The translations under genes and the position numbers were made by a program. DNA of 64,000 nt, taken from Escherichia coli (lineage in GTDB: Bacteria > Pseudomonadota > Gammaproteobacteria > Enterobacterales > Enterobacteriaceae). Within the stretch, counting starts at the first letter, position 1. Each line of letters starts with the position of its first letter. This document shows, one piece after another, positions 15,374 through 44,880 of this stretch. The notes beneath the pieces were generated by a model. The model was not told the origin of the DNA, did not search any database, and worked only from the letters and a program-made list of their open reading frames with translations. The stretch lies in NCBI RefSeq assembly GCF_016903815.1, contig NZ_CP069973.1; one strand, written 5' to 3'.

Positions 15374-17350
15374 ATGCAGCTTAATCATATCGTTAAAAGT
15401 CTGCTAATAACGGGATTATTCACCACCAGTTCTTTACCTCTCCTCGCGGCGGAAGCTCCTAAAGACGCCACCGCAGCCACGCAACAAGCAAACAATTTAC
15501 TCTACAACCAGTTGCCGTTTGCCGATAACACTGACTTTACTGATGCCCATAAAGGTTTTATTGCCCCTATCCCTCAAGACGTGATTAAGGGCGAACAAGG
15601 GAATGTTATCTGGGATCCACAACATTACGCTTTTATCAAAGAAGGCGATAAAGCCCCTGATACGGTGAATCCGAGTTTATGGCGTCAGGCGCAACTGATA
15701 AATATCAGCGGGTTATTCGAAGTAACTGAAGGTGTCTATCAGATTCGCAATCTCGATCTATCAAATATGACCATCATTGAAGGCAAAGAGGGTATTACCG
15801 TCGTTGATCCCCTTGTTTCAGCAGAAACAGCCAAAGTGGGTATGGATCTCTATTACAAAAATCGCGGCAAAAAACCGGTAGTGGCGGTTATCTATACACA
15901 CAGTCATGTCGATCACTACGGTGGTGTTCGTGGCGTAATTGATGAAGCTGACGTTAAATCAGGCAAAGTTAAAATCTATGCGCCAGCCGGATTTTTGGAG
16001 GAAGCCGTTTCCGAAAACATCATGGCTGGCAATGTTATGAGCCGACGAGCCAGTTATATGTATGGCAACTTATTGAAACCTGATGTTAAAGGCCAGGTGG
16101 GGGCTGGACTGGGAACGACTACTTCAGCAGGAACAGTCACGTTGATTGCTCCTACTAACTACATCACCAAAACCGGACAAATAGAAACTATTGACGGGTT
16201 GACTTATGATTTCCTGATGGCGCCAGGTTCTGAAGCGCCTTCTGAAATGCTGTGGTTTATTGAAGAAAAGAAACTGATCGAAACCGCTGAAGATGTCACG
16301 CACACCCTTCATAACACCTATTCGCTGCGTGGGGCTAAAATTCGCCAACCGCTGCCGTGGTCAAAATATATTAATGAAGCTCTCAATTTGTGGGGTGATA
16401 AAGCCGAGATTATTCTCGCTCAACATCACTGGCCAACCTGGGGCAACGATAACGTGGTCAAACTGCTTAAAAGCCAGCGTGATTTGTATCGTTACATCAA
16501 TGATCAAACTCTGCGCATGGCTAATCAAGGGATGACCCGTGATGAAATTGCCGCAAACTTTAAACTGCCCTCTTCACTGGCTAACACCTGGGCGAATCGC
16601 GGCTATTACGGTTCGGTAAGTCATGACGTGAAAGCAACTTACGTGCTTTATCTCGGCTGGTTTGATGGTAACCCCGCGACGCTTGATGAACTGCCGCCAG
16701 AAGAAGGCGCAAAAAAATTCGTCGAGTATATGGGCGGTGCTGATGCCATTTTACAGAAAGCCACACAGGATTATGACCAGGGTAATTTCCGCTGGGTTGC
16801 CCAAGTTGTTAGTAAGGTGGTGTTTGCCGATCCAAACAACCAGGCAGCGAGAGATCTGGAAGCTGATGCGCTTGAGCAGTTAGGCTATCAGGCTGAATCT
16901 GGGCCGTGGCGTAATTTCTATCTCACTGGTGCACAGGAATTGCGTAATGGCGTACAAAAATTACCAACACCAAATACTGCCAGCCCAGACACCGTGCGTG
17001 CGATGACGCCGGAGATGTTCTTTGATTATCTTGCCGTCCATATTAATGGTGAGAAAGCGGCAGATGCCAAAACCGTGTTGAATTTCGATTTTGGTGAAGA
17101 TGGCGGCACCTATAAAGTGGAGCTTGAAAATGGTGTTCTCAATCATACCGCTGGTGTAGAGGCTTCGGATGCTGATGCCACTATCACTCTGTCTCGTGAT
17201 GTATTGAACAAAATTGTACTGAAAGAAGAGACGCTGAAAGAAGCCACGGCCAAAGGAGATGTCAAAATTACTGGCAATGAGGAAAAACTCAACGAGCTGT
17301 TAGGTTATATGGATAATTTTGAATTTTGGTTCAATATAGTGACACCATAA
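15374..17350 (+). CDS. Secreted alkyl/aryl-sulfatase, metallo-beta-lactamase fold (SdsA1/YjcS family)
   Basis: 658 aa; signal peptide; THSHVDHYGG zinc motif; GGAGA RBS; not present at this position in K-12 as I recall it. Confidence 0.8.
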   Translation: MQLNHIVKSLLITGLFTTSSLPLLAAEAPKDATAATQQANNLLYNQLPFADNTDFTDAHKGFIAPIPQDVIKGEQGNVIWDPQHYAFIKEGDKAPDTVNPSLWRQAQLINISGLFEVTEGVYQIRNLDLSNMTIIEGKEGITVVDPLVSAETAKVGMDLYYKNRGKKPVVAVIYTHSHVDHYGGVRGVIDEADVKSGKVKIYAPAGFLEEAVSENIMAGNVMSRRASYMYGNLLKPDVKGQVGAGLGTTTSAGTVTLIAPTNYITKTGQIETIDGLTYDFLMAPGSEAPSEMLWFIEEKKLIETAEDVTHTLHNTYSLRGAKIRQPLPWSKYINEALNLWGDKAEIILAQHHWPTWGNDNVVKLLKSQRDLYRYINDQTLRMANQGMTRDEIAANFKLPSSLANTWANRGYYGSVSHDVKATYVLYLGWFDGNPATLDELPPEEGAKKFVEYMGGADAILQKATQDYDQGNFRWVAQVVSKVVFADPNNQAARDLEADALEQLGYQAESGPWRNFYLTGAQELRNGVQKLPTPNTASPDTVRAMTPEMFFDYLAVHINGEKAADAKTVLNFDFGEDGGTYKVELENGVLNHTAGVEASDADATITLSRDVLNKIVLKEETLKEATAKGDVKITGNEEKLNELLGYMDNFEFWFNIVTP

Positions 17351-17360
17351 ATTTACTGCA

Positions 17361-17390
17361 TACCGGGCAGGTATCCTGCCCTTTTTTGGT
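17361..17390 (+). terminator. Rho-independent terminator after the sulfatase gene
   Basis: gggcagg-tatc-ctgccc followed by tttttt. Confidence 0.6.
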
Positions 17391-17396
17391 TAAAAA

Positions 17397-18494
17397 ATGG
17401 CTGAACGAAGAAAAACTCATCACTCATGGAAAACCCGCCGCGATATGGTTATTCGCGGCATGACGATTAGTTTGCCATGGTTTGCTTTTATCAATGTCAG
17501 TTTTGCATTGATAATTTTGCTGCGCCGTGTTCTGTTTAATGACCTTACTCCACCCTGGTTAAATGAAAAAAGCCTTATACATTCTATTGATATATCTGCA
17601 ACGGGTATTCTGCTGATTTGCAGTGGTTTACTACTCATCCCTCGGCAAAAAACATTACCTATCCAGGTGCTATTAGTTGCCCTGAGCCTGCTATGGTCAT
17701 GGTGTAGTTATCACTTTATTGCGTACTGGACGCTGCAGTTTGCTTATCCACTATGTGTATTATTAATGCTTAGTGGCGTTGTCGCACTTTATTTCCATAC
17801 CCCATCATTGCTCGCATTTGTCATTCCCTTATGGTTCACCACTCCAATAGCGAGTCTTATGCTTAATCAACAGATCAATATTCATTTTGCTGTTGTATGG
17901 TGTATTTTTTCACTGGCGCTATATGGTGGGCGACTCATTTTGTTACGTTGGTTTGAAGAAGCATGGATACAAAACAGTTATAACAACCAGTTAATTAATC
18001 GCCTTGATGCATTAGCACATCGTGATCCTTTAACTGGGATAGCAAACCGACGTGCAATGAACAGTATCTTACACGACGCGATGGATAACGGCGGGTCATT
18101 TGCTCTTATTATGCTGGATGTCGATTTTTTTAAACGTTACAACGACACTTACGGGCATCCTGCTGGGGATCGTTGTCTAATACAAGTTGCCGACGCTCTA
18201 CAGCGTTCAACTCGCCAGTCGGAGGATGTTGTTGTCCGTTATGGTGGCGAAGAGTTTGCCATCATACTTTTTAATGCAACATTGCCGGAAGCAGAGACGG
18301 TAGCAGCCAGAGTGAAGCAAGAACTTAAACTGGCAGCTATCCCACATCAGGCATCTGCTGTTAATGCATTTGTTACGGTTAGTCAGGGGATTACCTGTTC
18401 TGCTCCCGCAAAAACGGCTGAACAAATTATTTCAGATGCCGACGCTGCGTTATACCGGGCGAAAGAAAGTGGGCGAAATCGATGGGCTTTATAA
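17397..18494 (+). CDS. Membrane-anchored diguanylate cyclase (multi-TM N-terminal domain + GGDEF)
   Basis: 365-aa ORF; hydrophobic N-terminal ~200 aa; RYGGEEF active-site motif; start codon uncertain (no clear RBS; internal Met candidates at 17445 and 17460); AT-rich. Confidence 0.8.
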   Translation: MAERRKTHHSWKTRRDMVIRGMTISLPWFAFINVSFALIILLRRVLFNDLTPPWLNEKSLIHSIDISATGILLICSGLLLIPRQKTLPIQVLLVALSLLWSWCSYHFIAYWTLQFAYPLCVLLMLSGVVALYFHTPSLLAFVIPLWFTTPIASLMLNQQINIHFAVVWCIFSLALYGGRLILLRWFEEAWIQNSYNNQLINRLDALAHRDPLTGIANRRAMNSILHDAMDNGGSFALIMLDVDFFKRYNDTYGHPAGDRCLIQVADALQRSTRQSEDVVVRYGGEEFAIILFNATLPEAETVAARVKQELKLAAIPHQASAVNAFVTVSQGITCSAPAKTAEQIISDADAALYRAKESGRNRWAL

Positions 18495-18567: not shown

Positions 18568-19119
18568 CTATCTTCTTAGCGATGTCTTTCTGGTATCACA
18601 TTGGATCGGTGCAATTATTTTTCCTTTAATACCCATTATGTTAAGAAATTCAGAAACAGCTGTAATCTCATTGTTTTTTTCATTCGTCTTGATCTTCCAA
18701 GGAATCTGACTGTGCATTATTGAGAACACACTAATAACGTGAATCGCTCCCTTGCGACGACTCTTGTCATAAGAGTACCGGAGCGTTTTTCCATCAATTG
18801 CAATGACGTCTTTATCATCTGAAGAATGGCAGTCAAGCATCCAGTTAATAAAGCACTCATGAAATTTTTCAGGACTGATACAGGATACAACTCTGGCAAT
18901 GGTATCGTGAACAGGAATACCATTATCAAAATCACCATATTGCTTCAAAAAATCGAGATGTGTTTCCCCAAAATCCTCTATATCTTCCCAGCCTTCTGCA
19001 CCCGAAATAACGGCACAAATAGTCAACAGTAGAATATCCGATAATTTATGCTCCACTTTCCAGGCTTGTCTGTAATCGGGGATAATAGAAATATGTTCCA
19101 TCAATTTTTTAAGTTCCAT
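18568..19119 (-). mobile_element. H-repeat-associated (ISAs1-family) transposase, N-terminal fragment only
   Basis: 183 aa, [50 protein letters not shown]... recognised as H-rpt/YdcC-like; full-length proteins are about twice this size. Confidence 0.75.
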
Positions 19120-19254: not shown

Positions 19255-19390
19255 CTTTCCCTGCCCTATCGGGTCTGTGTGATATATCGTCCCTGTCCCG
19301 GATTGTAGTACCGGTGCCAGTTGTAGTGCAGTTCGGATTCGTCGTCATACTGCTAGCCCGGATGGCGGAGCAGTTGCTCTAGTCACTCAG
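19255..19390 (-). pseudogene. Vestigial rhs core 3'-end fragment (nonsense + frameshift)
   Basis: Minus-strand translation [34 protein letters not shown] aligns with the main Rhs ...[35 protein letters not shown]; clear nucleotide similarity to 20331..20460. Confidence 0.6.
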
Positions 19391-19424: not shown

Positions 19425-19823
19425 TCAATATCCTAACGCTGGTCTTTTGCCTGTATTAACTGATTTAGCTGGTTTGCTACATATTAATGCCTTCAGATTT
19501 TCCCTTTCCTTGTCTGTGATACTGTCGCAAACCCTACTAGCCCATTCTACTTCACTCTTCTCCAGGCATTCAATTTTCTTATTGCTCATTGTTCTAATGT
19601 TTGGTGTTGCATCTCCATTTAATAACATCCATGTTTCATTTTTCTTCATAAAACATCTTCCATTATGTTCAAAGATATTAGGTGTGAATATATTATCAGA
19701 ATCCCATGTTACGACTTGCTCGAGGGCTATATTATCTTGATAGTCCATGCCAGAATTATAATAATCACAAGATATAATTATCATGGAAATAATTATCACT
19801 AATATCTTCCCAAGCATTTCCAT
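19425..19823 (-). CDS. Putative Rhs-toxin immunity lipoprotein
   Basis: 132 aa, immediately downstream of and abutting the rhs stop; lipobox IIS-C with Asp at +2; AT-rich; assignment is by position. Confidence 0.55.
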   Translation of the reverse strand: MEMLGKILVIIISMIIISCDYYNSGMDYQDNIALEQVVTWDSDNIFTPNIFEHNGRCFMKKNETWMLLNGDATPNIRTMSNKKIECLEKSEVEWASRVCDSITDKERENLKALICSKPAKSVNTGKRPALGY

Positions 19824-22800
19824 TTACTTTACCTCTTGAAATTTAAATGGGAATCCAGTGAAAGGACCTTTAGGCATAATATATCTTTGATATCCATAAA
19901 ACTCACCGAGCACTTGTAGGCTTATAGGCGCATTTGTATTCATAGAGGGGTTGTTAAACCCGCACGCCTCAAAAATCATGTTCGTTCGGCTAAAACAATT
20001 ATTTGCAACAGGAAGAGGCCCGAGGTTAATAGTTTTTAGTTTTTTATTAAGGTCTATTGCCTTATTCATCATACATTGTTCTTCTTCATCTGTTGTATCT
20101 ATTATCCAAATCCAGGTATCTCTGCGGGGTTGCATCTTTTTAAAATAATCAGAGACAGAGGCGCCCATCTCATCCCCAGTTCCCGAACTCATTAATCCAT
20201 ATCGATTTGCCGCCGCAGCATGCCCAAAAGGATTATCAGGAACGGGGCCATTACCTATTATCATAGTACTAAGGCCTAATGGATCAACGTGTTGCACTGG
20301 ATTCAGCGGATATTGGTACAGATTCCATCCCCCATCCCCCCCTATCGGGTCCTGGATGATATACCGCCCCTGCAACGGATCGTAGTACCGGTGACGGTTA
20401 TAATACAGCCCCGACTCCTCATCGTGTTGCTGCCCTGGCAGACGGTACGGCTGGTGCAGGTGATGCGGGTTTTCCTCATTCAGCAGGTTTCCCCACTCAT
20501 CATACTCCCCGCTCCACGCCGTATTGCCGTCTTCGCTGATGAGCGCCAGCGGCAGGCCCCGGTGGTCGCAGTGGTAAAGATGAACTTTTCGCGCCGGTGT
20601 GTATTCCGGCTCCACCTGTCTGGCCAGTTGCTCTACCGTCAGCCCGCACTGCGCAAGCCACGCCCGGCTTTCACTGCTCACGCGGTCTGCCCGGATTTCT
20701 TCCTCCAGTCTGTCCAGCAGCCGTACCAGTTCAGCCGGGAACACCACGCCGTGCCCGTCCTCGCTCCCTTCCTGCTGCAGCTTCTCCGCCAGGCTGTGGC
20801 GCTGCGTTTTCTCCCGCTCGCCGTTGTCTGTTTCGATGCGGATGAGTGGTGTGAAGCTTCCCGGCTCGTATACCGTCTGGATCCGGCTCTGTTGTGTCTG
20901 TATCGTCGTCAGCCTGTCACCGTCCCAGCCGTACCACGTTACCTCCGGTTTACGCGACAGCGACATCCACCCCGTCAGGTCACGTACCCGCCGCCACACC
21001 CGTTTACCCGTCCGGCGGCCCAGCGGGTCGTAGAGGTAGCGGCTCTCCACCTGCGGCTCGCCATGCTGTATCCGCGTGTAGAACTCTAGGCGGTGCTGGC
21101 TGTCGTAGTGGTAGTGGTGGGTCCGCTCGTCGTCCGTCCGTATCACACCCGCCGGGATGCGGTCCGTCTTCTCCGTCAGCCTGCCGTATTCATCGTGGCG
21201 GTAGACATAGTGCGCATCCTCCGCGATGCGGTTATCCAGCCACACTGTGAGTGTACTGTCCGGGTGCAGCTCCGGGTCCGGCAGCCGGTTGCCCGCCGGG
21301 TCCGTGGCATACGGGATGCGGATGTCCAGGTCCGGTGCGAGGGTGCGCACACTCGCCAGCCTGCCCGTGGCGCTGTAGCCGTATTCCCGCGTCTGTCGCG
21401 GGCCGCTGATGCGCACCAGGTCGCCGTTGTCATTCCACCCGTAGTCACGGTCATACACCAGGCTGTTCAGGTGCTGGCTCTGTAACTGGCCTGCGGGGGT
21501 GTATGTGCTGGTCAGTTCGTATGCGGCATTACTGCCTGCCATGCTGCCGAAGCTGCGCACCGTCTCCCGGTGCAGCCTGTCCCGCGTATACTCGACCCGC
21601 GGCGTCCCGCCCAGCTTCATGCCCGCCAGATAGCCGCTACCATAGGTCAGCCACTCCACCGGCGGCAGGCTGTCCGGCGTGACGCGGTTTGCCAGCCCCT
21701 GCTCGTTGTATGCGTGTTTCGTCTCATGCTGCCACAGCAGTTCCCCCGTCTCCGGGTTCTCCACCGTCTGGCGTTCGCCGGTCAGGCGGCCTTTATCGTC
21801 ATAGCCATAGTGGACGGCAACACGGTGGCCTTCACTGGTATGGCTGAGGGTGGTTAACCACCCGTGCTCATCATACTGCCACTGCTCTGCCGGGTCGCCG
21901 TTCACCGTCCGGTGCGTGATGCGGTCTGCTTCATCGTAGTACCACTGCGTGACCTGCCCCTCATCCTCGCTGCGGATGAGCTGCCCTGTGGCGCTGTACC
22001 GGTAACGCTGTGTCCTGCCATCAAAGCCGCGCTGCTCCGTCAGGCGGTCCAGCACATCGTAGGTAAATTCACTCCGGCTGCCGTTCTCGTTGGTCAGCGT
22101 GGTGACACGTCCTGCCGCGTCATACTCCATACTGCGCGTCAGCCCGCCCTGCGTGGTGCTGACCGCTTTTCCCCACGCATCGTACTGTGTCTCGCTCCGG
22201 TTGCCGTCCGGGGTGATAACGGCAGTCAGGTCGCCTGCGGCGTTGTACTCATACTGCGTTTCACGGCCCTGTGCGTCTTTCACCGAGGTTAACCGGCCAC
22301 GGTTGTCATAGCGGCGGTAACGGCTGATACCTTCCTCGCGGTGGACCGCCGTCATCTGACCAAAGCGGTCGTATTCATAGCGGGTCTGGTAGCCCGAGCA
22401 GTCGGTGAACGCCAGCAACTGCCCGTAGCGGCTCCAGGTCATCTGCCGGGTGCTGCCCGTCGCATCCGTTGTCGTCGCCGGTAACTCACTGTACGCGTCA
22501 TCGTAGCGGTAGCGTACTGTCTCCCCGCTGCGCGATGTCTCCGTTACCAGCCTGCCCGGTTCATCATATGCCCGGCGGCTCTCCAGCCCGTCCGGGGACA
22601 CCACTGCCGTCACCTGGTTCCCGTCGTTATAGTAAAATTTCGTCTCCCGCCCGTCCGGTGTGGTGATGTCCGTGATATCGCCTGACACCACATTCAGACC
22701 GTACTCTGTCCGCCGTCCCGCCGCGTCCGTCTGCGCCGTAAGCCTTCCTGCCGCGTCATACCCACTGTGCGTGGCGCTGCCGTCCGCCAGTTCTTTTTTC

Positions 22801-24029
22801 ACCACCCGCCTCAGCCCGGCCCCGCCTTCTGTATGCAGCACCTCACGCCGGTTCAGGCTGTCCGTGACGGTGATGCGGTCCTGCTCATACTGGTAGCGGT
22901 AACTCAGGCCTGCCGGGTTCAGCTGCTCCACCACCCGCCCCGCATCGTCGTAGCGGTAGCGCATCTCCGGCCTTCCCGCGTAACGGTGCGCCACCATCCG
23001 GCCCGGGTGCTGCGCGTCATACGTGAAAGCGCGCACCTGCGTATTGCTGCGGTCATATACCGCCAGCAGTTCACCGGCTTCCGTATACGTGTACCGCACC
23101 AGTGGCGCACCGGGCAGGCTCTCCGGGTATGCCGGGTCGTGCATCAGCCACACCGCCGAAAGACGGATGCCCCTGTCGGGGCCGTATTCGGTACCGGGCA
23201 GTGTGTCGGGGAACGCTGAGGCTGAAAGAGGGCGGGGGGTGTCAGGGGAAAATAAGGAAGCGGTGTGCTGTTTACGGGCCTCTTCCGCCCGCTGCGCCTG
23301 CGTGGTCAGCACCAGACGGAACTCCCGCCCGGCACCGTCCGTCACGCCGGTGATTTCCCCGGCCAGGTCACCGGCGGCCTCACGCCGGTACGTCAGCCCG
23401 GTAAGCACCCGGTACGGCGGCAGCGGCGCTGGCAGTACGTCCTCAGTGCCCGGCACCCGCTCTGACCACCCCAGTATCCACCACGGTCCCTGTGCGCTGT
23501 TGGTCGCCAGGTAAAGATGCGGGCTTAACCGGATATCCGGCGGCAGCGACGCCCACAGCCGTGCCAGCGTGTGGCCGTCCGGCTGCGCTGCCTTACCACC
23601 GCGAACCAGCCACATTGACTCGCTGCGGCTGTACACCGCCCCCCCCGGCAGCAGCGGCTCAAAGTGAATGCTCCGTCCGCCGTTGTCGTTGAGTACCAGT
23701 GCATCATCGCGTATCTGTAAGCGGATATCAGAAGGCGCTTTCCAGCCGGGGCCAAAAATTCCCACCGGCGCAGGCGTCTTCGTCCGGTAGCTGCTGTAGG
23801 TGCGGGAGAGAATGAACGGCAGCGGGCCGGGCAGCGCAAGGTCCGTCTCGCCGGGCAGCACCTTCGCCCCCAGCAGCGGATTTACCGGGTTGCCCGAAGT
23901 CATCCTGCCCGGACACACCGAGCACGCCACGCCGGTGGGCGCGCCAATTCTTACACCTGCCGAACCCTGGACAATGGGACCGCCATACTGAGTCATATCT
24001 CCCTGACGCGCCGCTGGTTTTCCGCTCAT
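19824..24029 (-). CDS. rhsE: Rhs-family polymorphic toxin with N-terminal PAAR-like domain, YD-repeat core and variable C-terminal toxin domain
   Basis: 1401 aa; N-terminus [11 protein letters not shown]; many YD repeats; core ends at ...[27 protein letters not shown], followed by a 148-aa AT-rich tail (19827..20270); gene symbol by synteny only. Confidence 0.9.
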
Positions 24030-24095
24030 GATTCAATTCCTTCTTCTGTTTATTTTTAATGCTTGTTTGTTACTGAATACCGAACAGGTACGGGA

Positions 24096-26204
24096 TCAGT
24101 ACTCTCTCATATCCGGCGTATCCTGCTTTTCATCAGGGGTCTTCGGTGGGGATTTCGAGGCTGCACAGTTCCAGTTAATCAACAGTGAGTCACCATTAAC
24201 CTGCTCCTTACCCTGCAAATGAATTTTTGTGCCGTTGAGAAAAATTTGTCCGTCCTTAGTCAGCACCAGCCTTGCCTTACCACAGCAGAGTTCCAGATGC
24301 TCACCGGCGGAGTAAATCGCGGTCTGCCCGGTATCATCCTTTTTCGTTTTACCAACGGTGAAGGTAACGTTATTTCCGACTTTGACGTCATAACCCAGCC
24401 CGACCATCAACGATTTATGCAAACCGATCTGCGAGGACTGCATCAGGGCCACCGAAGTGTTCATAATGCCACCTACCGTCGTCTGATACGCCACGCCCAC
24501 AGTCAGCGCACGAACAAGTCCAATCGTTTCCACCTGAACAGAGCCCACTTTAATGATCTGGTTACTGCCCACCGTCTCTATCTGGTTAACGCCCACCGTC
24601 TGTATCTGATTGTTGGTAACCGCAATCATCTGATTGTTGCCAATGGTCTCAGCATGGTTGTTTATCACATCCGTGGTGCGGTTATTCAGCACCTCGGTGT
24701 TCATGTTCTTCTGCGCGTGGATGTAGACCTGTTCTTTCCCTGTCGCATCGTCAAACTTCAGTTCATTAAACCCGCTGCCCTTATAGGTTTTCGAACGAAT
24801 GGTCATCTGCGTCTTTGTTCCCGGCAGGCTGCCGGGGGTGCGGTTTTCCTGGTGGTAGGTACGCCCCATAATAATCGGCTGGTCCGGATCGCCGTTGAGG
24901 AAGTCCACAATGACTTCCTGACCCACACGCGGTATCGCCAGGTTGCCAAAGCCGGTGCCTGCCCACGCCTGTGCCACACGGATCCAGCATGAACTGTCCT
25001 GGTTTGACGGGTTATAGCGGTCCCAGTTAAATTTCACCCGCACGCGGCCATGTTCATCACAGAAGATTTCTTCTCCTGCCGGTCCCGTCACGACGGCGCT
25101 CTGCGGGCCGTCCACCAGCGGTTTCAGCAACGGCTGTGGCCGCCATGTTCTGTCTGCCGGTATTACCGCAAAGTGGTTATTCAGCGTGGTACCTGAACCC
25201 CTGCGTCCCGGCACCGCCTGCGGCTGCTCGCCGTGCAGTTCACTTGCCACCACCTGCCATTCCCGGTTCAGGTTCGCCTGCGGATGCCCCGTCAGCGCAA
25301 TTCGCCGTCCCGGCCATATCTCCGGCGAACGGCTTGTTCCGCGCGCCACTTCTGCGTTGTTTCGCCAGCCATCCATCTGCCAGCAGGCAAAGTTCTGCCC
25401 GTGGGCACCCTTGAAACGTCCGGGGTAGTCATACACTTCATACTGTGTGCGCTGGTAATCCTGGTGCTGGCCTTCCTGATCAAAACGCCCTGCCCAGCCG
25501 GGTCGTTTAAAGGTGTAGTCTTTGGTCACCACGGAAGATGGGCGGATTTGTGCGCTGTAGAGGAACTGGCTGATGCATAGGGTGCTCACCTCGGTACGGG
25601 TGTTCGGATTCCAGGGGATCTCAAAGGACTCCGGCAGATAACGCACGGTGTCGCACAGGACCAGGCTCTGGTCGGTACTTTTTTGCGCGTGCTCCTCATA
25701 AAAGAAGATGCCTTCCTCCGCCGCCATCCGGCACAGGAAATCGTAATCGGTTTCGCCGTACTGGACACAAAACTCACGGGAAGGATGCGGCTCGCTGAAC
25801 AGCGGACTCCACTCGGTCACCCCGTTTTCTTTCAGGATCGTCGCGAGTATGCTTTCGATGTCCTCATTCTGGAAGATACGGAAGTTCTGGCGCAGCCCTG
25901 TGCGCCACAGTGGTGGGCACACCTTCATGCTGTACAGCATCTGGTTTTTGTCGTTCTCCCCCAGTTCAAACCAGGTCACCACACCTTTCACCCGGCGCTG
26001 TACGTCATCGCCCTGCCATACCGTCAGGTAGGCCATTTTGTCCAGCACCTGCGCAAATTCAAGGGAGAGAAACTGCTGGCTGACCAGAGAGAGATCGAGG
26101 GAAAAGAGCGAAGAGAATGACTGGTTCAGATGAAAGGAGACCACCGCAAACGCGTCCGGTGGCAGGCCGTCCACTTCCAGCGTGAAACGTAATCCGGCTG
26201 ACAT
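24096..26204 (-). CDS. vgrG: Type VI secretion spike protein VgrG
   Basis: 702 aa from MSAGLRFTLEVDGLPPDAFAVVSF (internal Met of the track ORF, GGAGG RBS 7 nt upstream); 66 nt upstream of rhs. Confidence 0.88.
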   Translation of the reverse strand: MSAGLRFTLEVDGLPPDAFAVVSFHLNQSFSSLFSLDLSLVSQQFLSLEFAQVLDKMAYLTVWQGDDVQRRVKGVVTWFELGENDKNQMLYSMKVCPPLWRTGLRQNFRIFQNEDIESILATILKENGVTEWSPLFSEPHPSREFCVQYGETDYDFLCRMAAEEGIFFYEEHAQKSTDQSLVLCDTVRYLPESFEIPWNPNTRTEVSTLCISQFLYSAQIRPSSVVTKDYTFKRPGWAGRFDQEGQHQDYQRTQYEVYDYPGRFKGAHGQNFACWQMDGWRNNAEVARGTSRSPEIWPGRRIALTGHPQANLNREWQVVASELHGEQPQAVPGRRGSGTTLNNHFAVIPADRTWRPQPLLKPLVDGPQSAVVTGPAGEEIFCDEHGRVRVKFNWDRYNPSNQDSSCWIRVAQAWAGTGFGNLAIPRVGQEVIVDFLNGDPDQPIIMGRTYHQENRTPGSLPGTKTQMTIRSKTYKGSGFNELKFDDATGKEQVYIHAQKNMNTEVLNNRTTDVINNHAETIGNNQMIAVTNNQIQTVGVNQIETVGSNQIIKVGSVQVETIGLVRALTVGVAYQTTVGGIMNTSVALMQSSQIGLHKSLMVGLGYDVKVGNNVTFTVGKTKKDDTGQTAIYSAGEHLELCCGKARLVLTKDGQIFLNGTKIHLQGKEQVNGDSLLINWNCAASKSPPKTPDEKQDTPDMREY

Positions 26205-27300
26205 AGCAACCTCCGTGAAAATGAATAATAATCCGCACATATTGCATGTACAACATGTCGGGCGGATGAGATAAGCGAGTCGACATCTGGCGTTACCGGG
26301 GAATATCAAAAAAATGTCATGGTTATGTGATGATTTAGTCTGGGATTTTACTTCAGAGAAACGGGTGTCTGTTTAGTCAACAAAATAATCACAAACGCAA
26401 CGGATGGGTTCTCGACGTTATTCACGACAGGCTCGCGAGTAATAAAAACCTGATATGCAAAGTCAAACCAATATTCATAATGTCTTTTTATTCACAACAA
26501 TAAATAATTCAATAACAATCATTGAAATGAATGATGGTTTGTATAAGGAATATACGCTACCGCCCCACCCTGAAAACATGAACTGCACATTGCCATCTTA
26601 ACGTCGTTAAACACTGGCTTAATAGTGGGTATTTAAAATTAGGAATTTATTAAATTCACCTGATGAATATCATAAGCAAATAGCATAGAAAATAATGACA
26701 ACTCCCCCGAGGGGACCATTTCCAAAGCACTGCACCACCACCTGGTGCCCGGATGATCTTGCTTCATTGGTAAGAGTACCTGATTCATTGTTTCCAAAAT
26801 GGTGTTTTCCCCGGCCCCTCCAATAATGTGCAGCTCTCACGTGATAATCTATTGATTAGGTTATATTAAGAATCAATATTTGAAATACATCCATTTTCTT
26901 GAATAAATCAACATGTTTATTTATCAATTGCTGTTTTAGCTCTGACTCATCAAGCTCTCCATATTTGTCCTACAGATAATCGCGAATAAATACAGAGAAC
27001 GCCATTTATCCTTTTAGCATACCTGCCGGATATTTTTATTTGTATTAATATTAATTGCATCTCCAACTCCGAGCATATCCATCATTAAAAACATTTTGAG
27101 ATTATAGAATGCCTGTGATAACAACTGAAACATCTGCACAATGTGAATAGTTAGTTTCTTTTCAGAGGAAATGAAATAGACAAGCTGAATGAAAGGGAGA
27201 GTAATATAAATTAAAAAAATAACATGAATCTAATTAATTACGTCCATCATTGTGGATAAAGTTACTGAATAATAAATAACATAATCTTCTGGCATCCCAC

Positions 27301-36603: not shown

Positions 36604-36777
36604 TTAAAACAGTGAAAACAACAGCGCCACCGGGAAACTCATCGGCCATGTTGCCCCCACCAGAAAGGCGCTTAAGAAACGGATGCGTTTCTTATCGTGA
36701 GAAAGAAACCAGGTGATAAGAAATGAGATTGCTGCCATAACCGCATAAAAAACAAGCATATGTTGATAGAGAGACAT
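36604..36777 (-). CDS. ortT: Orphan membrane toxin OrtT (YdcX)
   Basis: 57 aa from MSLYQHMLVFYAVMAAISFLITWFLSHDKKRIRFLSAF..., internal Met of the track ORF. Confidence 0.7.
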   Translation of the reverse strand: MSLYQHMLVFYAVMAAISFLITWFLSHDKKRIRFLSAFLVGATWPMSFPVALLFSLF

Positions 36778-44241: not shown

Positions 44242-44658
<417 letters not shown>

Positions 44659-44703
44659 AATTTCGACTGTCTCTCGCATGTCATTAACCTTTTTAATTGG
44701 CGA

Positions 44704-44880
44704 TTAACTCAAACCGAGTTGTTTCAGGATTGCTTTACGCAATGGTTCTTTAATCTCATCGCAGGGGTGACGCGGCATGACACTGCGCCTCCCACGAAAC
44801 CTGAGTTTCAAATGGTTGCTGCCATTCGCTACATCGACGCCCTGAGATTCGAGCCAACGTCTGAACTCGCTTTGTTTCAC
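44704..44880 (-). CDS. hicA: HicA mRNA-interferase toxin
   Basis: Hand translation (below the track size cutoff): V/MKQSEFRRWLESQGVDVANGSNHLKLRFRGRRSVMPRHPCDEIKEPLRKAILKQLGLS*; apparent GTG start. Confidence 0.75.
   Translation of the reverse strand: MKQSEFRRWLESQGVDVANGSNHLKLRFRGRRSVMPRHPCDEIKEPLRKAILKQLGLS

Follow-up and report, generated by a model that had tools for sequence, protein, structure and literature searches.

A vgrG-rhs cassette at the rhsE locus of Escherichia coli with a predicted permuted NlpC/P60 toxin tip and a putative lipoprotein immunity gene

Is the vgrG-rhs cassette that some Escherichia coli strains carry at the rhsE locus a usable weapon, and if so, what would its toxin attack? 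We addressed this question in a 64,000-nt stretch of E. coli DNA (contig NZ_CP069973.1; hereafter the window), where a vgrG gene, a long rhs gene and a small open reading frame (ORF132) lie together at the rhsE locus, with yncH on one side and an ISAs1 remnant on the other. A sequence-only reading of this DNA had described an apparently intact orphan type VI secretion system (T6SS) cassette with the order spike, Rhs effector, toxin and immunity gene. We found the three co-directional genes as described, all on the minus strand and each with a Shine-Dalgarno sequence: vgrG (702 aa, 24096..26204), then after a 66-nt gap rhs (1401 aa, 19824..24029), and directly abutting it ORF132 (132 aa, 19425..19823). 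This three-gene layout is not explicable as a chance pattern of open reading frames, and the GC content along it (55% in vgrG, 64% in the Rhs core, 40% in the C-terminal domain and 34% in ORF132, compared to 50% in the whole window) is a classic Rhs mosaic. We consider it somewhat better than evenly probable that the cassette is an auxiliary (orphan) T6SS effector module with a lipid-targeting toxin tip and a lipoprotein immunity protein. The cassette type is already known, since it is annotated in RefSeq, named vgrE in O157:H7 Sakai and published (PMC12981562, PMC7216683); what is new is that we place the unannotated tip in the permuted NlpC/P60 class that targets lipids, and that we recognize a putative family of small lipoprotein immunity proteins.

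The toxin domain comprises the last 148 residues of the Rhs protein (residues 1254-1401; 19827..20270, minus strand), and its predicted fold is that of a circularly permuted NlpC/P60 His/Cys hydrolase. Fold comparison alone identified the toxin class; the routes that used only sequence gave nothing. When we compared the modelled domain with known structures, the fold-comparison value was highest for YiiX (2if6; 9.3), followed by TseH, a T6SS effector of Vibrio cholerae (6v98; 8.5), the YiiX-like protein 3kw0 (7.7) and the acyltransferase domain of MARTX RID (5xn7; 7.0), with lower values for PPPDE (2wp7; 4.3), vasohibin (6j4s; 4.1), CLN5 (6r99; 4.0) and PLAAT4 (7zot; 3.5). The best fold matches are papain-like, and the permuted NlpC/P60 relatives (YiiX, TseH and PLAAT4/LRAT) have the His ahead of the Cys, which is also the order in the cassette toxin (His1270, codon 20220-20222; Cys1345, codon 19995-19997; both minus strand). 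In the AFDB50 database, Foldseek returned, after the toxin's own family, DUF4105/Lnb_N proteins (some from Salmonella salamae) and many Rhs C-termini, with TM-scores of 0.65-0.75. Judged by these models, the closest relatives of the toxin are YiiX, TseH and DUF4105/Tox-Act1-like Rhs tips.

The toxin has few close homologues (54-97% identity), found in E. coli, Salmonella, Hafnia and metagenomes. Searching 1.84 billion proteins with a toxin profile, we found 333 representatives at E<=0.001, many of them at the C-termini of proteins of 1100-2500 aa, and an Rhs-type motif (YYDPxxGR- or DPxGL-like) was present in 105 of 166 toxin domain hits. The predicted catalytic pair is nearly invariant: His17 in domain numbering (Rhs H1270) is conserved in 161 of 162 hits and Cys92 (Rhs C1345) in 157 of 158. 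In a diverse alignment of 31 members, N13, G16, G25, S28, G30 and R50 are also invariant. When Pfam was run on the 31 relatives in this alignment, Lnb_N (formerly DUF4105) matched two at E<=0.001 and seven at E<=0.1, which is a weak signal; PPPDE matched two, and DUF6695, Peptidase_C92 and LRAT matched none of the 31.

To place the tip among characterized toxins, we compared it with Tox-Act1, an effector of the Salmonella SPI-6 T6SS that has a permuted NlpC/P60 fold with a remote link to DUF4105 (PMC12994826, 2026). Tox-Act1 is toxic only in the periplasm, its toxicity depends on both His and Cys, and PG and PE are its phospholipase substrates; for TseH, one of two assays gave phospholipase activity on liposomes, and the Tox-Act1 clade includes fusions to Rhs proteins, one of them in E. 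coli (PMC12994826). Compared at the level of fold only, the cassette toxin shares with Tox-Act1 the permuted fold, the His-then-Cys order, the position at Rhs C-termini, the lack of a direct Pfam match and the remote DUF4105 link. The spacing between His and Cys is 75 residues in the cassette toxin and 108 in Tox-Act1. For QMP79959.1, the E. coli Rhs protein cited as a Tox-Act1 homologue, Pfam gives a DUF4105 match, whereas the cassette Rhs has none, and the accessions of the cassette proteins are absent from the supplements of PMC12994826, where one Salmonella entry in the TseH sheet comes from the genome of a homologue but from a different contig. Based on the structural models, the tip is in the same structural class as Tox-Act1 and probably in the same broad clade. 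The likeness to TseH/TsiH of V. cholerae (6v98) is more distant in sequence: identity is only 6%, and neither the cassette toxin nor its 31 relatives match DUF6695. To our knowledge, TseH has not been reported as an Rhs fusion. YiiX (2if6), 3kw0 and Lnb/DUF4105 proteins are housekeeping or lipoprotein-acylating enzymes rather than toxins, with 8-32% identity over the fold matches.

We next to the toxin gene find ORF132 (RefSeq WP_021523077.1, hypothetical protein), a predicted inner-membrane lipoprotein with no significant Pfam or NCBIfam family. At the junction between the two genes, AAGAGGTAAAGTAAATG, the rhs TAA is followed directly by the ORF132 ATG, with AAGAGG just upstream. The toxin tip of a Salmonella enterica contig likewise abuts an ORF132 homologue with no gap, and homologues of ORF132 are as narrowly distributed as the toxin. 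The proposed order of toxin and immunity gene thus holds in both E. coli and Salmonella, and based on this adjacency and shared narrow distribution ORF132 is the putative cognate immunity gene. In the Salmonella contig (AAGWGY020000001.1, 1-3628), another orphan Rhs fragment, of 714 aa, and an ORF of 150 aa lie directly behind the tip and immunity gene, so that orphan tips are stacked in an array.

The N-terminus of ORF132 reads MEMLGK-ILVIIISMII-I-S-C19-D20, which matches the lipobox pattern [LVI][ASTVI][GAS]C; this single signal/lipobox segment is followed by a soluble, Cys-rich body. In all six aligned homologues, the S-C-D of the lipobox region, within a lipobox of the form I-(I/T/V)-S-C, and four further Cys residues are invariant, and the four conserved Cys suggest two periplasmic disulfides. 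In E. coli, an Asp at position +2 keeps a lipoprotein in the inner membrane. By this rule ORF132 is predicted to be retained there, facing the periplasm, which in turn points to the periplasm as the toxin's site of action. ORF132 represents a previously undescribed, putative family of small lipoprotein immunity proteins. Downstream of the rhsE tip in O157 Sakai (20240-20470 of its piece), there is an unannotated ORF that starts with MKKYIFLVLFLLYGCSP and is lipoprotein-signal-like; judging from such N-termini, different tips at the rhsE locus may share periplasmic lipoprotein immunity.

At the other end of the cassette, the 702-aa protein (RefSeq WP_001523247.1, labelled type VI secretion system tip protein VgrG) has the features of a bona fide VgrG/TssI of the vgrE type, with a hub, an OB-fold and a beta-helix, and scores above the family threshold: it matches NCBIfam TIGR03361 at 624 bits (cut-off 186) and, in Pfam, Phage_GPD (29-327), Phage_base_V (384-450) and Gp5_trimer_C (467-576). 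Its ATG has a Shine-Dalgarno sequence, GGAGG, 6 nt upstream; a mechanical ORF list runs the gene on to a TTG at 26309 (737 aa), and RefSeq takes the 702-aa form. The orphan VgrG is 92% identical to the VgrG of the aspV-linked T6SS cluster of strain KY 1497. The two differ at 2 positions within residues 1-518 and part ways only in the last ~190 aa, a pattern that suggests interchangeable spikes choosing different cargo, as would be expected of such proteins. The 66-nt spacer between vgrG and rhs (24030..24095, minus strand), read directly from the sequence, has a GAAGGA Shine-Dalgarno ahead of the rhs ATG; it contains no ORF and is too short for an Eag/DUF1795 chaperone gene.

The rhs product (RefSeq WP_032153651.1, "RHS element core protein") has the signature of a full-length polymorphic toxin core with YD-repeats, as the sequence-only reading had claimed. 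Its core, residues 1-1253 (20271..24029, minus strand), consists of a PAAR-like N-terminus, DUF6531, a YD-repeat shell and the RHS-associated core up to DPLGL. NCBIfam RHS_core matches residues 1-1253 at 2683 bits (cut-off 2000), seven stretches match the YD-repeat model, and YD_repeat_2x and Rhs_assc_core match as well; in Pfam there are 11 RHS_repeat matches at E<=0.001 in the first 1200 residues, with DUF6531 at 46-123 and RHS at 1149-1185. Both parts of the autoprotease motif are present, D1227 (QDPIG; PIGG) and D1249 (VDPLGL↓S), and from this motif the protein is predicted to cleave itself at DPLGL↓S. The orphan and aspV-cluster Rhs cores are 73% identical, and this identity ends exactly at DPLGL↓S, past which lies a variable domain of low GC (64% to 40%). 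Exactly at this boundary between core and toxin there is also a sigma-70-like site, TTGATC-16-TATGAT (20287-20260, minus strand), a match to consensus only, which could allow independent expression of the tip and immunity gene.

The N-terminal 45 residues of Rhs (23895..24029, minus strand) contain one literal PAAR, at residues 5-8, and the same N-terminus is conserved in the Rhs of the aspV cluster. Such proteins are named PAAR-Rhs in the literature. Because only ~45 residues precede DUF6531, the N-terminus is best described as at most a shortened PAAR-like element rather than a full domain. Class I loading of the prePAAR/Eag type is marked by an AARxxDxxxH motif, N-terminal transmembrane helices and an adjacent eag (DUF1795) gene. 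We rejected it for this Rhs, in which the His of the motif is replaced by Tyr, residues 1-60 contain no hydrophobic helix and no chaperone gene is found.

If the cassette is to be fired, the apparatus has to come from elsewhere in the genome. We found no T6SS gene beyond the cassette in the 64-kb window, as checked in the RefSeq annotation of strain 7/2 (NZ_CP023820.1), which differs from window positions 10001-64000 (54 kb) by 1 mismatch; the island is an orphan, as proposed, and the core genes lie at aspV. The aspV cluster of 7/2 contains tssA, B, C, E, F, G, H, J, K, L and M, two copies of hcp, and vgrG. Its order in both KY 1497 and 7/2 is hcp, vasL, tssM, tssA, vasI, tssH, tssL, tssK, tssJ, tagH, tssG, tssF, tssE, tssC, tssB, hcp, vgrG, rhs, immunity gene, ISAs1, and no pseudogene flag is set on tssA-M, hcp or vgrG. 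KY 1497 carries this complete cluster together with a toxin segment that is 100% identical. In 7/2, the aspV T6SS is ~1.45 Mb from the cassette; the cluster is not at 3.13-3.18 Mb of 7/2, and the rhsE region is locally inverted in that chromosome. Since a complete aspV T6SS is present in the near-identical 7/2 and VgrG residues 1-518 are nearly the same in cluster and cassette, the cassette appears deliverable, in principle, in the lineage of the window. The search for core genes thus did not bear out the reading of the cassette as a non-deliverable relic.

To see how widely the toxin and the sheath gene occur together, we used chimeric probes that joined an 846-bp toxin/immunity segment to a 700-bp piece of tssC, so that the number of match places per record tells of the sheath gene. 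The toxin/immunity segment is present in 566 of 5426 complete E. coli genomes, nearly at full length in 543. With tssC probes from three E. coli 042 clusters, megablast found no second place in toxin-bearing genomes. The corresponding reading, that carriers have no T6SS, was ruled out by blastn, which detected a divergent tssC in at least some toxin carriers, and by inspection of aspV, where the cluster is divergent but complete. The tssC probe from KY 1497 found two places in 7/2 and other close carriers. A tssC of this type was present in 6 of 13 evenly spaced carriers, and arithmetic on the match counts gives ~266 of 566. In several carriers no tssC of any tested type was found, blastn included. 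By megablast, the separate carrier WCHEC035123 lacks a KY 1497-type tssC, although its vgrG, rhs and ORF132 are all intact and lie at the same locus (NZ_CP058651.1, 3051-9846 of its piece), with the same toxin at 98.9% DNA identity. Such intact cassettes occur in smaller E. coli genomes without a tssC match.

Taken together, these data suggest the following mechanism. Once expressed, the VgrG paralogue would replace or join the cluster VgrG at the tip of an Hcp tube supplied by the aspV-linked T6SS. Its divergent C-terminal ~190 residues would select the neighbouring Rhs, docked by its short PAAR-like N-terminus. Once self-cleavage at DPLGL↓S has occurred, the C-terminal domain of 148 residues would lie enclosed by the YD-repeat shell. 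When the system fires into an adjacent Gram-negative cell, this domain would be set free in the periplasm and act there as a His/Cys acyl-hydrolase of the permuted NlpC/P60 type. By analogy with Tox-Act1, and with TseH in one of its two assays, it would most likely attack inner-membrane lipids as a phospholipase; the site of Tox-Act1 action is the periplasm, and for the cassette toxin the same is predicted from its immunity protein. Sister cells would be shielded by ORF132 as a small, disulfide-bonded lipoprotein on the periplasmic face of the inner membrane.

Several results weigh against this mechanism. The toxin domain has zero Pfam matches even at E<=10, and specifically none to DUF4105, DUF6695, Peptidase_C92 or LRAT; among PDB sequences there is no match with either the single toxin protein or the 31-member profile, so the tie to characterized enzymes is at the level of fold only. 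The AF2 model of ORF132 is poor (pLDDT 63) and gave no significant Foldseek match in the PDB, and as a lipoprotein ORF132 differs from Imm-Act1, the immunity protein of Tox-Act1, which has two transmembrane helices. At the N-terminus of Rhs, a canonical three-repeat PAAR domain was not detected, as Pfam PAAR_motif covers only residues 3-20 (model 52-69 of 70) at E=0.29; the proposed PAAR-Rhs owes its name to a single literal PAAR, and docking of Rhs to VgrG is a putative step. The cassette was called intact, and all three frames are indeed open, but compared to two related Rhs proteins there is an in-frame loss of 8 residues between L212 and T213 (23391..23396, minus strand; pairwise alignments), where the phylogroup-A-like allele of WCHEC035123 has ADRFGRTL and the aspV-cluster Rhs has VDGFGRTL. 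Near the autoprotease motif, this Rhs has DPIGG (residues 1227-1231) where relatives have DPIGL, and both the 8-aa loss and DPIGG are common to all genomes identical to the window. A related system of enterohaemorrhagic E. coli (EHEC) is reported to be degenerate (PMC12981562). About half of the 566 carriers, by our estimate, may lack the sheath gene, and the cassette is apparently kept also in lineages unable to fire it.

Many of these same results would fit a cassette that is open but functionally idle, either silenced or prevented from loading by its degenerate PAAR and the loss of 8 aa in the shell, and kept mainly because ORF132 protects against neighbours with the same toxin. The deletion and the DPIGG variant, the absence of a significant PAAR domain, the AT-rich stretch (36% GC) upstream of vgrG, the intact copies in genomes without any tssC match and the reported degeneracy of the EHEC homologues (PMC12981562) all point this way. 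However, the three frames have stayed open across 6.7 kb with good ribosome-binding sites, the orphan VgrG is only 2 positions off the cluster copy over residues 1-518, a complete apparatus is present, the catalytic His/Cys and the cleavage motif are kept, and the K-12 locus described below shows that unused copies decay. We regard an idle cassette as unlikely.

Rather improbable, in our judgement, is that the same delivery module carries a cell-wall hydrolase (an amidase or endopeptidase), an activity that canonical NlpC/P60 enzymes have and that TseH was initially proposed to have. The topology of the cassette toxin is permuted, with His before Cys, and the characterized permuted members, namely LRAT/PLAAT, YiiX-like proteins, Lnb and Tox-Act1, act on acyl groups (PMC12994826; PMC3142127). 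In addition, the nearest AFDB structures are DUF4105/Lnb_N proteins and not cell-wall enzymes, and Asp+2 predicts that the immunity protein is held at the inner membrane, a placement that would mildly favour a membrane-lipid over a cell-wall target.

A further possibility, which we rate as quite doubtful, is that the tip forms a separate branch of permuted NlpC/P60 enzymes whose target is not bulk phospholipid but an acylated envelope molecule on the outer side of the inner membrane, such as lipoprotein maturation intermediates, and that the cassettes may also be put to a use independent of T6SS. By analogy with the related Lnb N-acyltransferase, such a target would explain why the immunity protein is a lipoprotein retained at the inner membrane, and the intact cassettes in lineages without a detectable sheath gene might reflect T6SS-independent use. 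It is highly improbable that ORF132 has no immunity role and that the toxin works on proteins in the cytoplasm, for example as a papain-like protease, a deamidase or an acyltransferase in the manner of MARTX RID, because ORF132 adjoins the toxin in two genera with the same narrow distribution, has a conserved lipoprotein signal and four Cys and so cannot neutralize a cytoplasmic toxin, and is the only ORF between rhs and the Rhs remnant. The lipid-targeting effector module protected by a lipoprotein is the reading that we retain.

The same locus in other E. coli strains shows how its tips are exchanged and lost. In O157:H7 Sakai, we found the same site (yncH, then vgrG-rhs-immunity, an ISAs1 remnant and pptA), a 702-aa VgrG annotated as vgrE (ECs_2060) followed by a 1400-aa Rhs, and the same family of Rhs core; in contrast, the C-terminal toxin and the downstream ORF of Sakai are unrelated in sequence to those of the cassette. 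In the literature, vgrE is an orphan locus of the EHEC aspV T6SS, with rhsE downstream of its own vgrG (PMC12981562, PMC7216683). The rhs of EDL933 is reported to be fragmented (PMC12981562), whereas here it is one open frame. K-12 MG1655 has yncH, an rhsE pseudogene, ydcD, yncI and ydcC, and no vgrG, in agreement with the degraded K-12 rhsE that the sequence-only reading had mentioned. Locus and Rhs core are shared with K-12 (93.7% DNA identity over 1.56 kb). By BLAST, the homology reaches window position 26272, ~68 nt upstream of the vgrG start, and resumes at 21857 inside rhs. The difference is a clean 4.4-kb deletion (26271-21858) in K-12 that removes all of vgrG and the first ~724 codons of rhs, and K-12 has another tip and immunity gene (ydcD).

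In the window, yncE-ansP-yncG-yncH lie on one flank of the cassette; on the other come 108 bp left over from the end of an Rhs core, an ISAs1 transposase in truncated form, genes for a GGDEF protein and a sulfatase, and pptA. The Rhs remnant (19275..19382, minus strand) is a RefSeq pseudogene whose translation contains stops, and WCHEC035123 retains a longer form of it downstream of the immunity gene (9889-10834 of its piece). The ISAs1 (H-repeat) transposase remnant (18569..19119, minus strand), also a RefSeq pseudogene, bounds the Rhs element and is homologous to the ydcC region of K-12; it matches NCBIfam transpos_ISAs1 at 1.3e-49 over profile positions 1-142 of 314. The two fragments are what is left of an older rhs tip that was displaced. 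The alkyl/aryl-sulfatase and GGDEF-domain genes (15374-18494) separate the ISAs1 remnant from pptA; at this place K-12 carries the ydcC H-repeat transposase alone. The orientation of the rhsE region is opposite to that in K-12, and the same 7/2 chromosome is K-12-oriented at 0.24 Mb and 3.13 Mb, which implies a large local inversion around the terminus-proximal rhsE region. Apart from the single base in 54 kb, the sole difference found between the window and 7/2 is an IS200 in narH, which is whole in the window (9241-10785) and disrupted by IS200C in 7/2 (8530-10785 of the compared piece). Based on the 7/2 annotation, the 64 kb also contain the small toxin systems ortT, hicAB and hokB, at 36604-36777, 44242-44880 and ~61057-61206, respectively.

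About 10% of complete E. coli genomes, including those of multidrug-resistant clinical lineages, carry this tip and its putative immunity gene, for which databases give no more than "RHS element core protein" and "hypothetical protein". We assign the tip to the permuted NlpC/P60 enzymes that target lipids, a class whose first direct biochemical characterization appeared in 2026, and the ORF132 family would offer a second, different way to neutralize toxins of this kind. The carriers that seemingly lack a sheath gene, about half of the total, form a natural set in which to ask why undeliverable cassettes persist.

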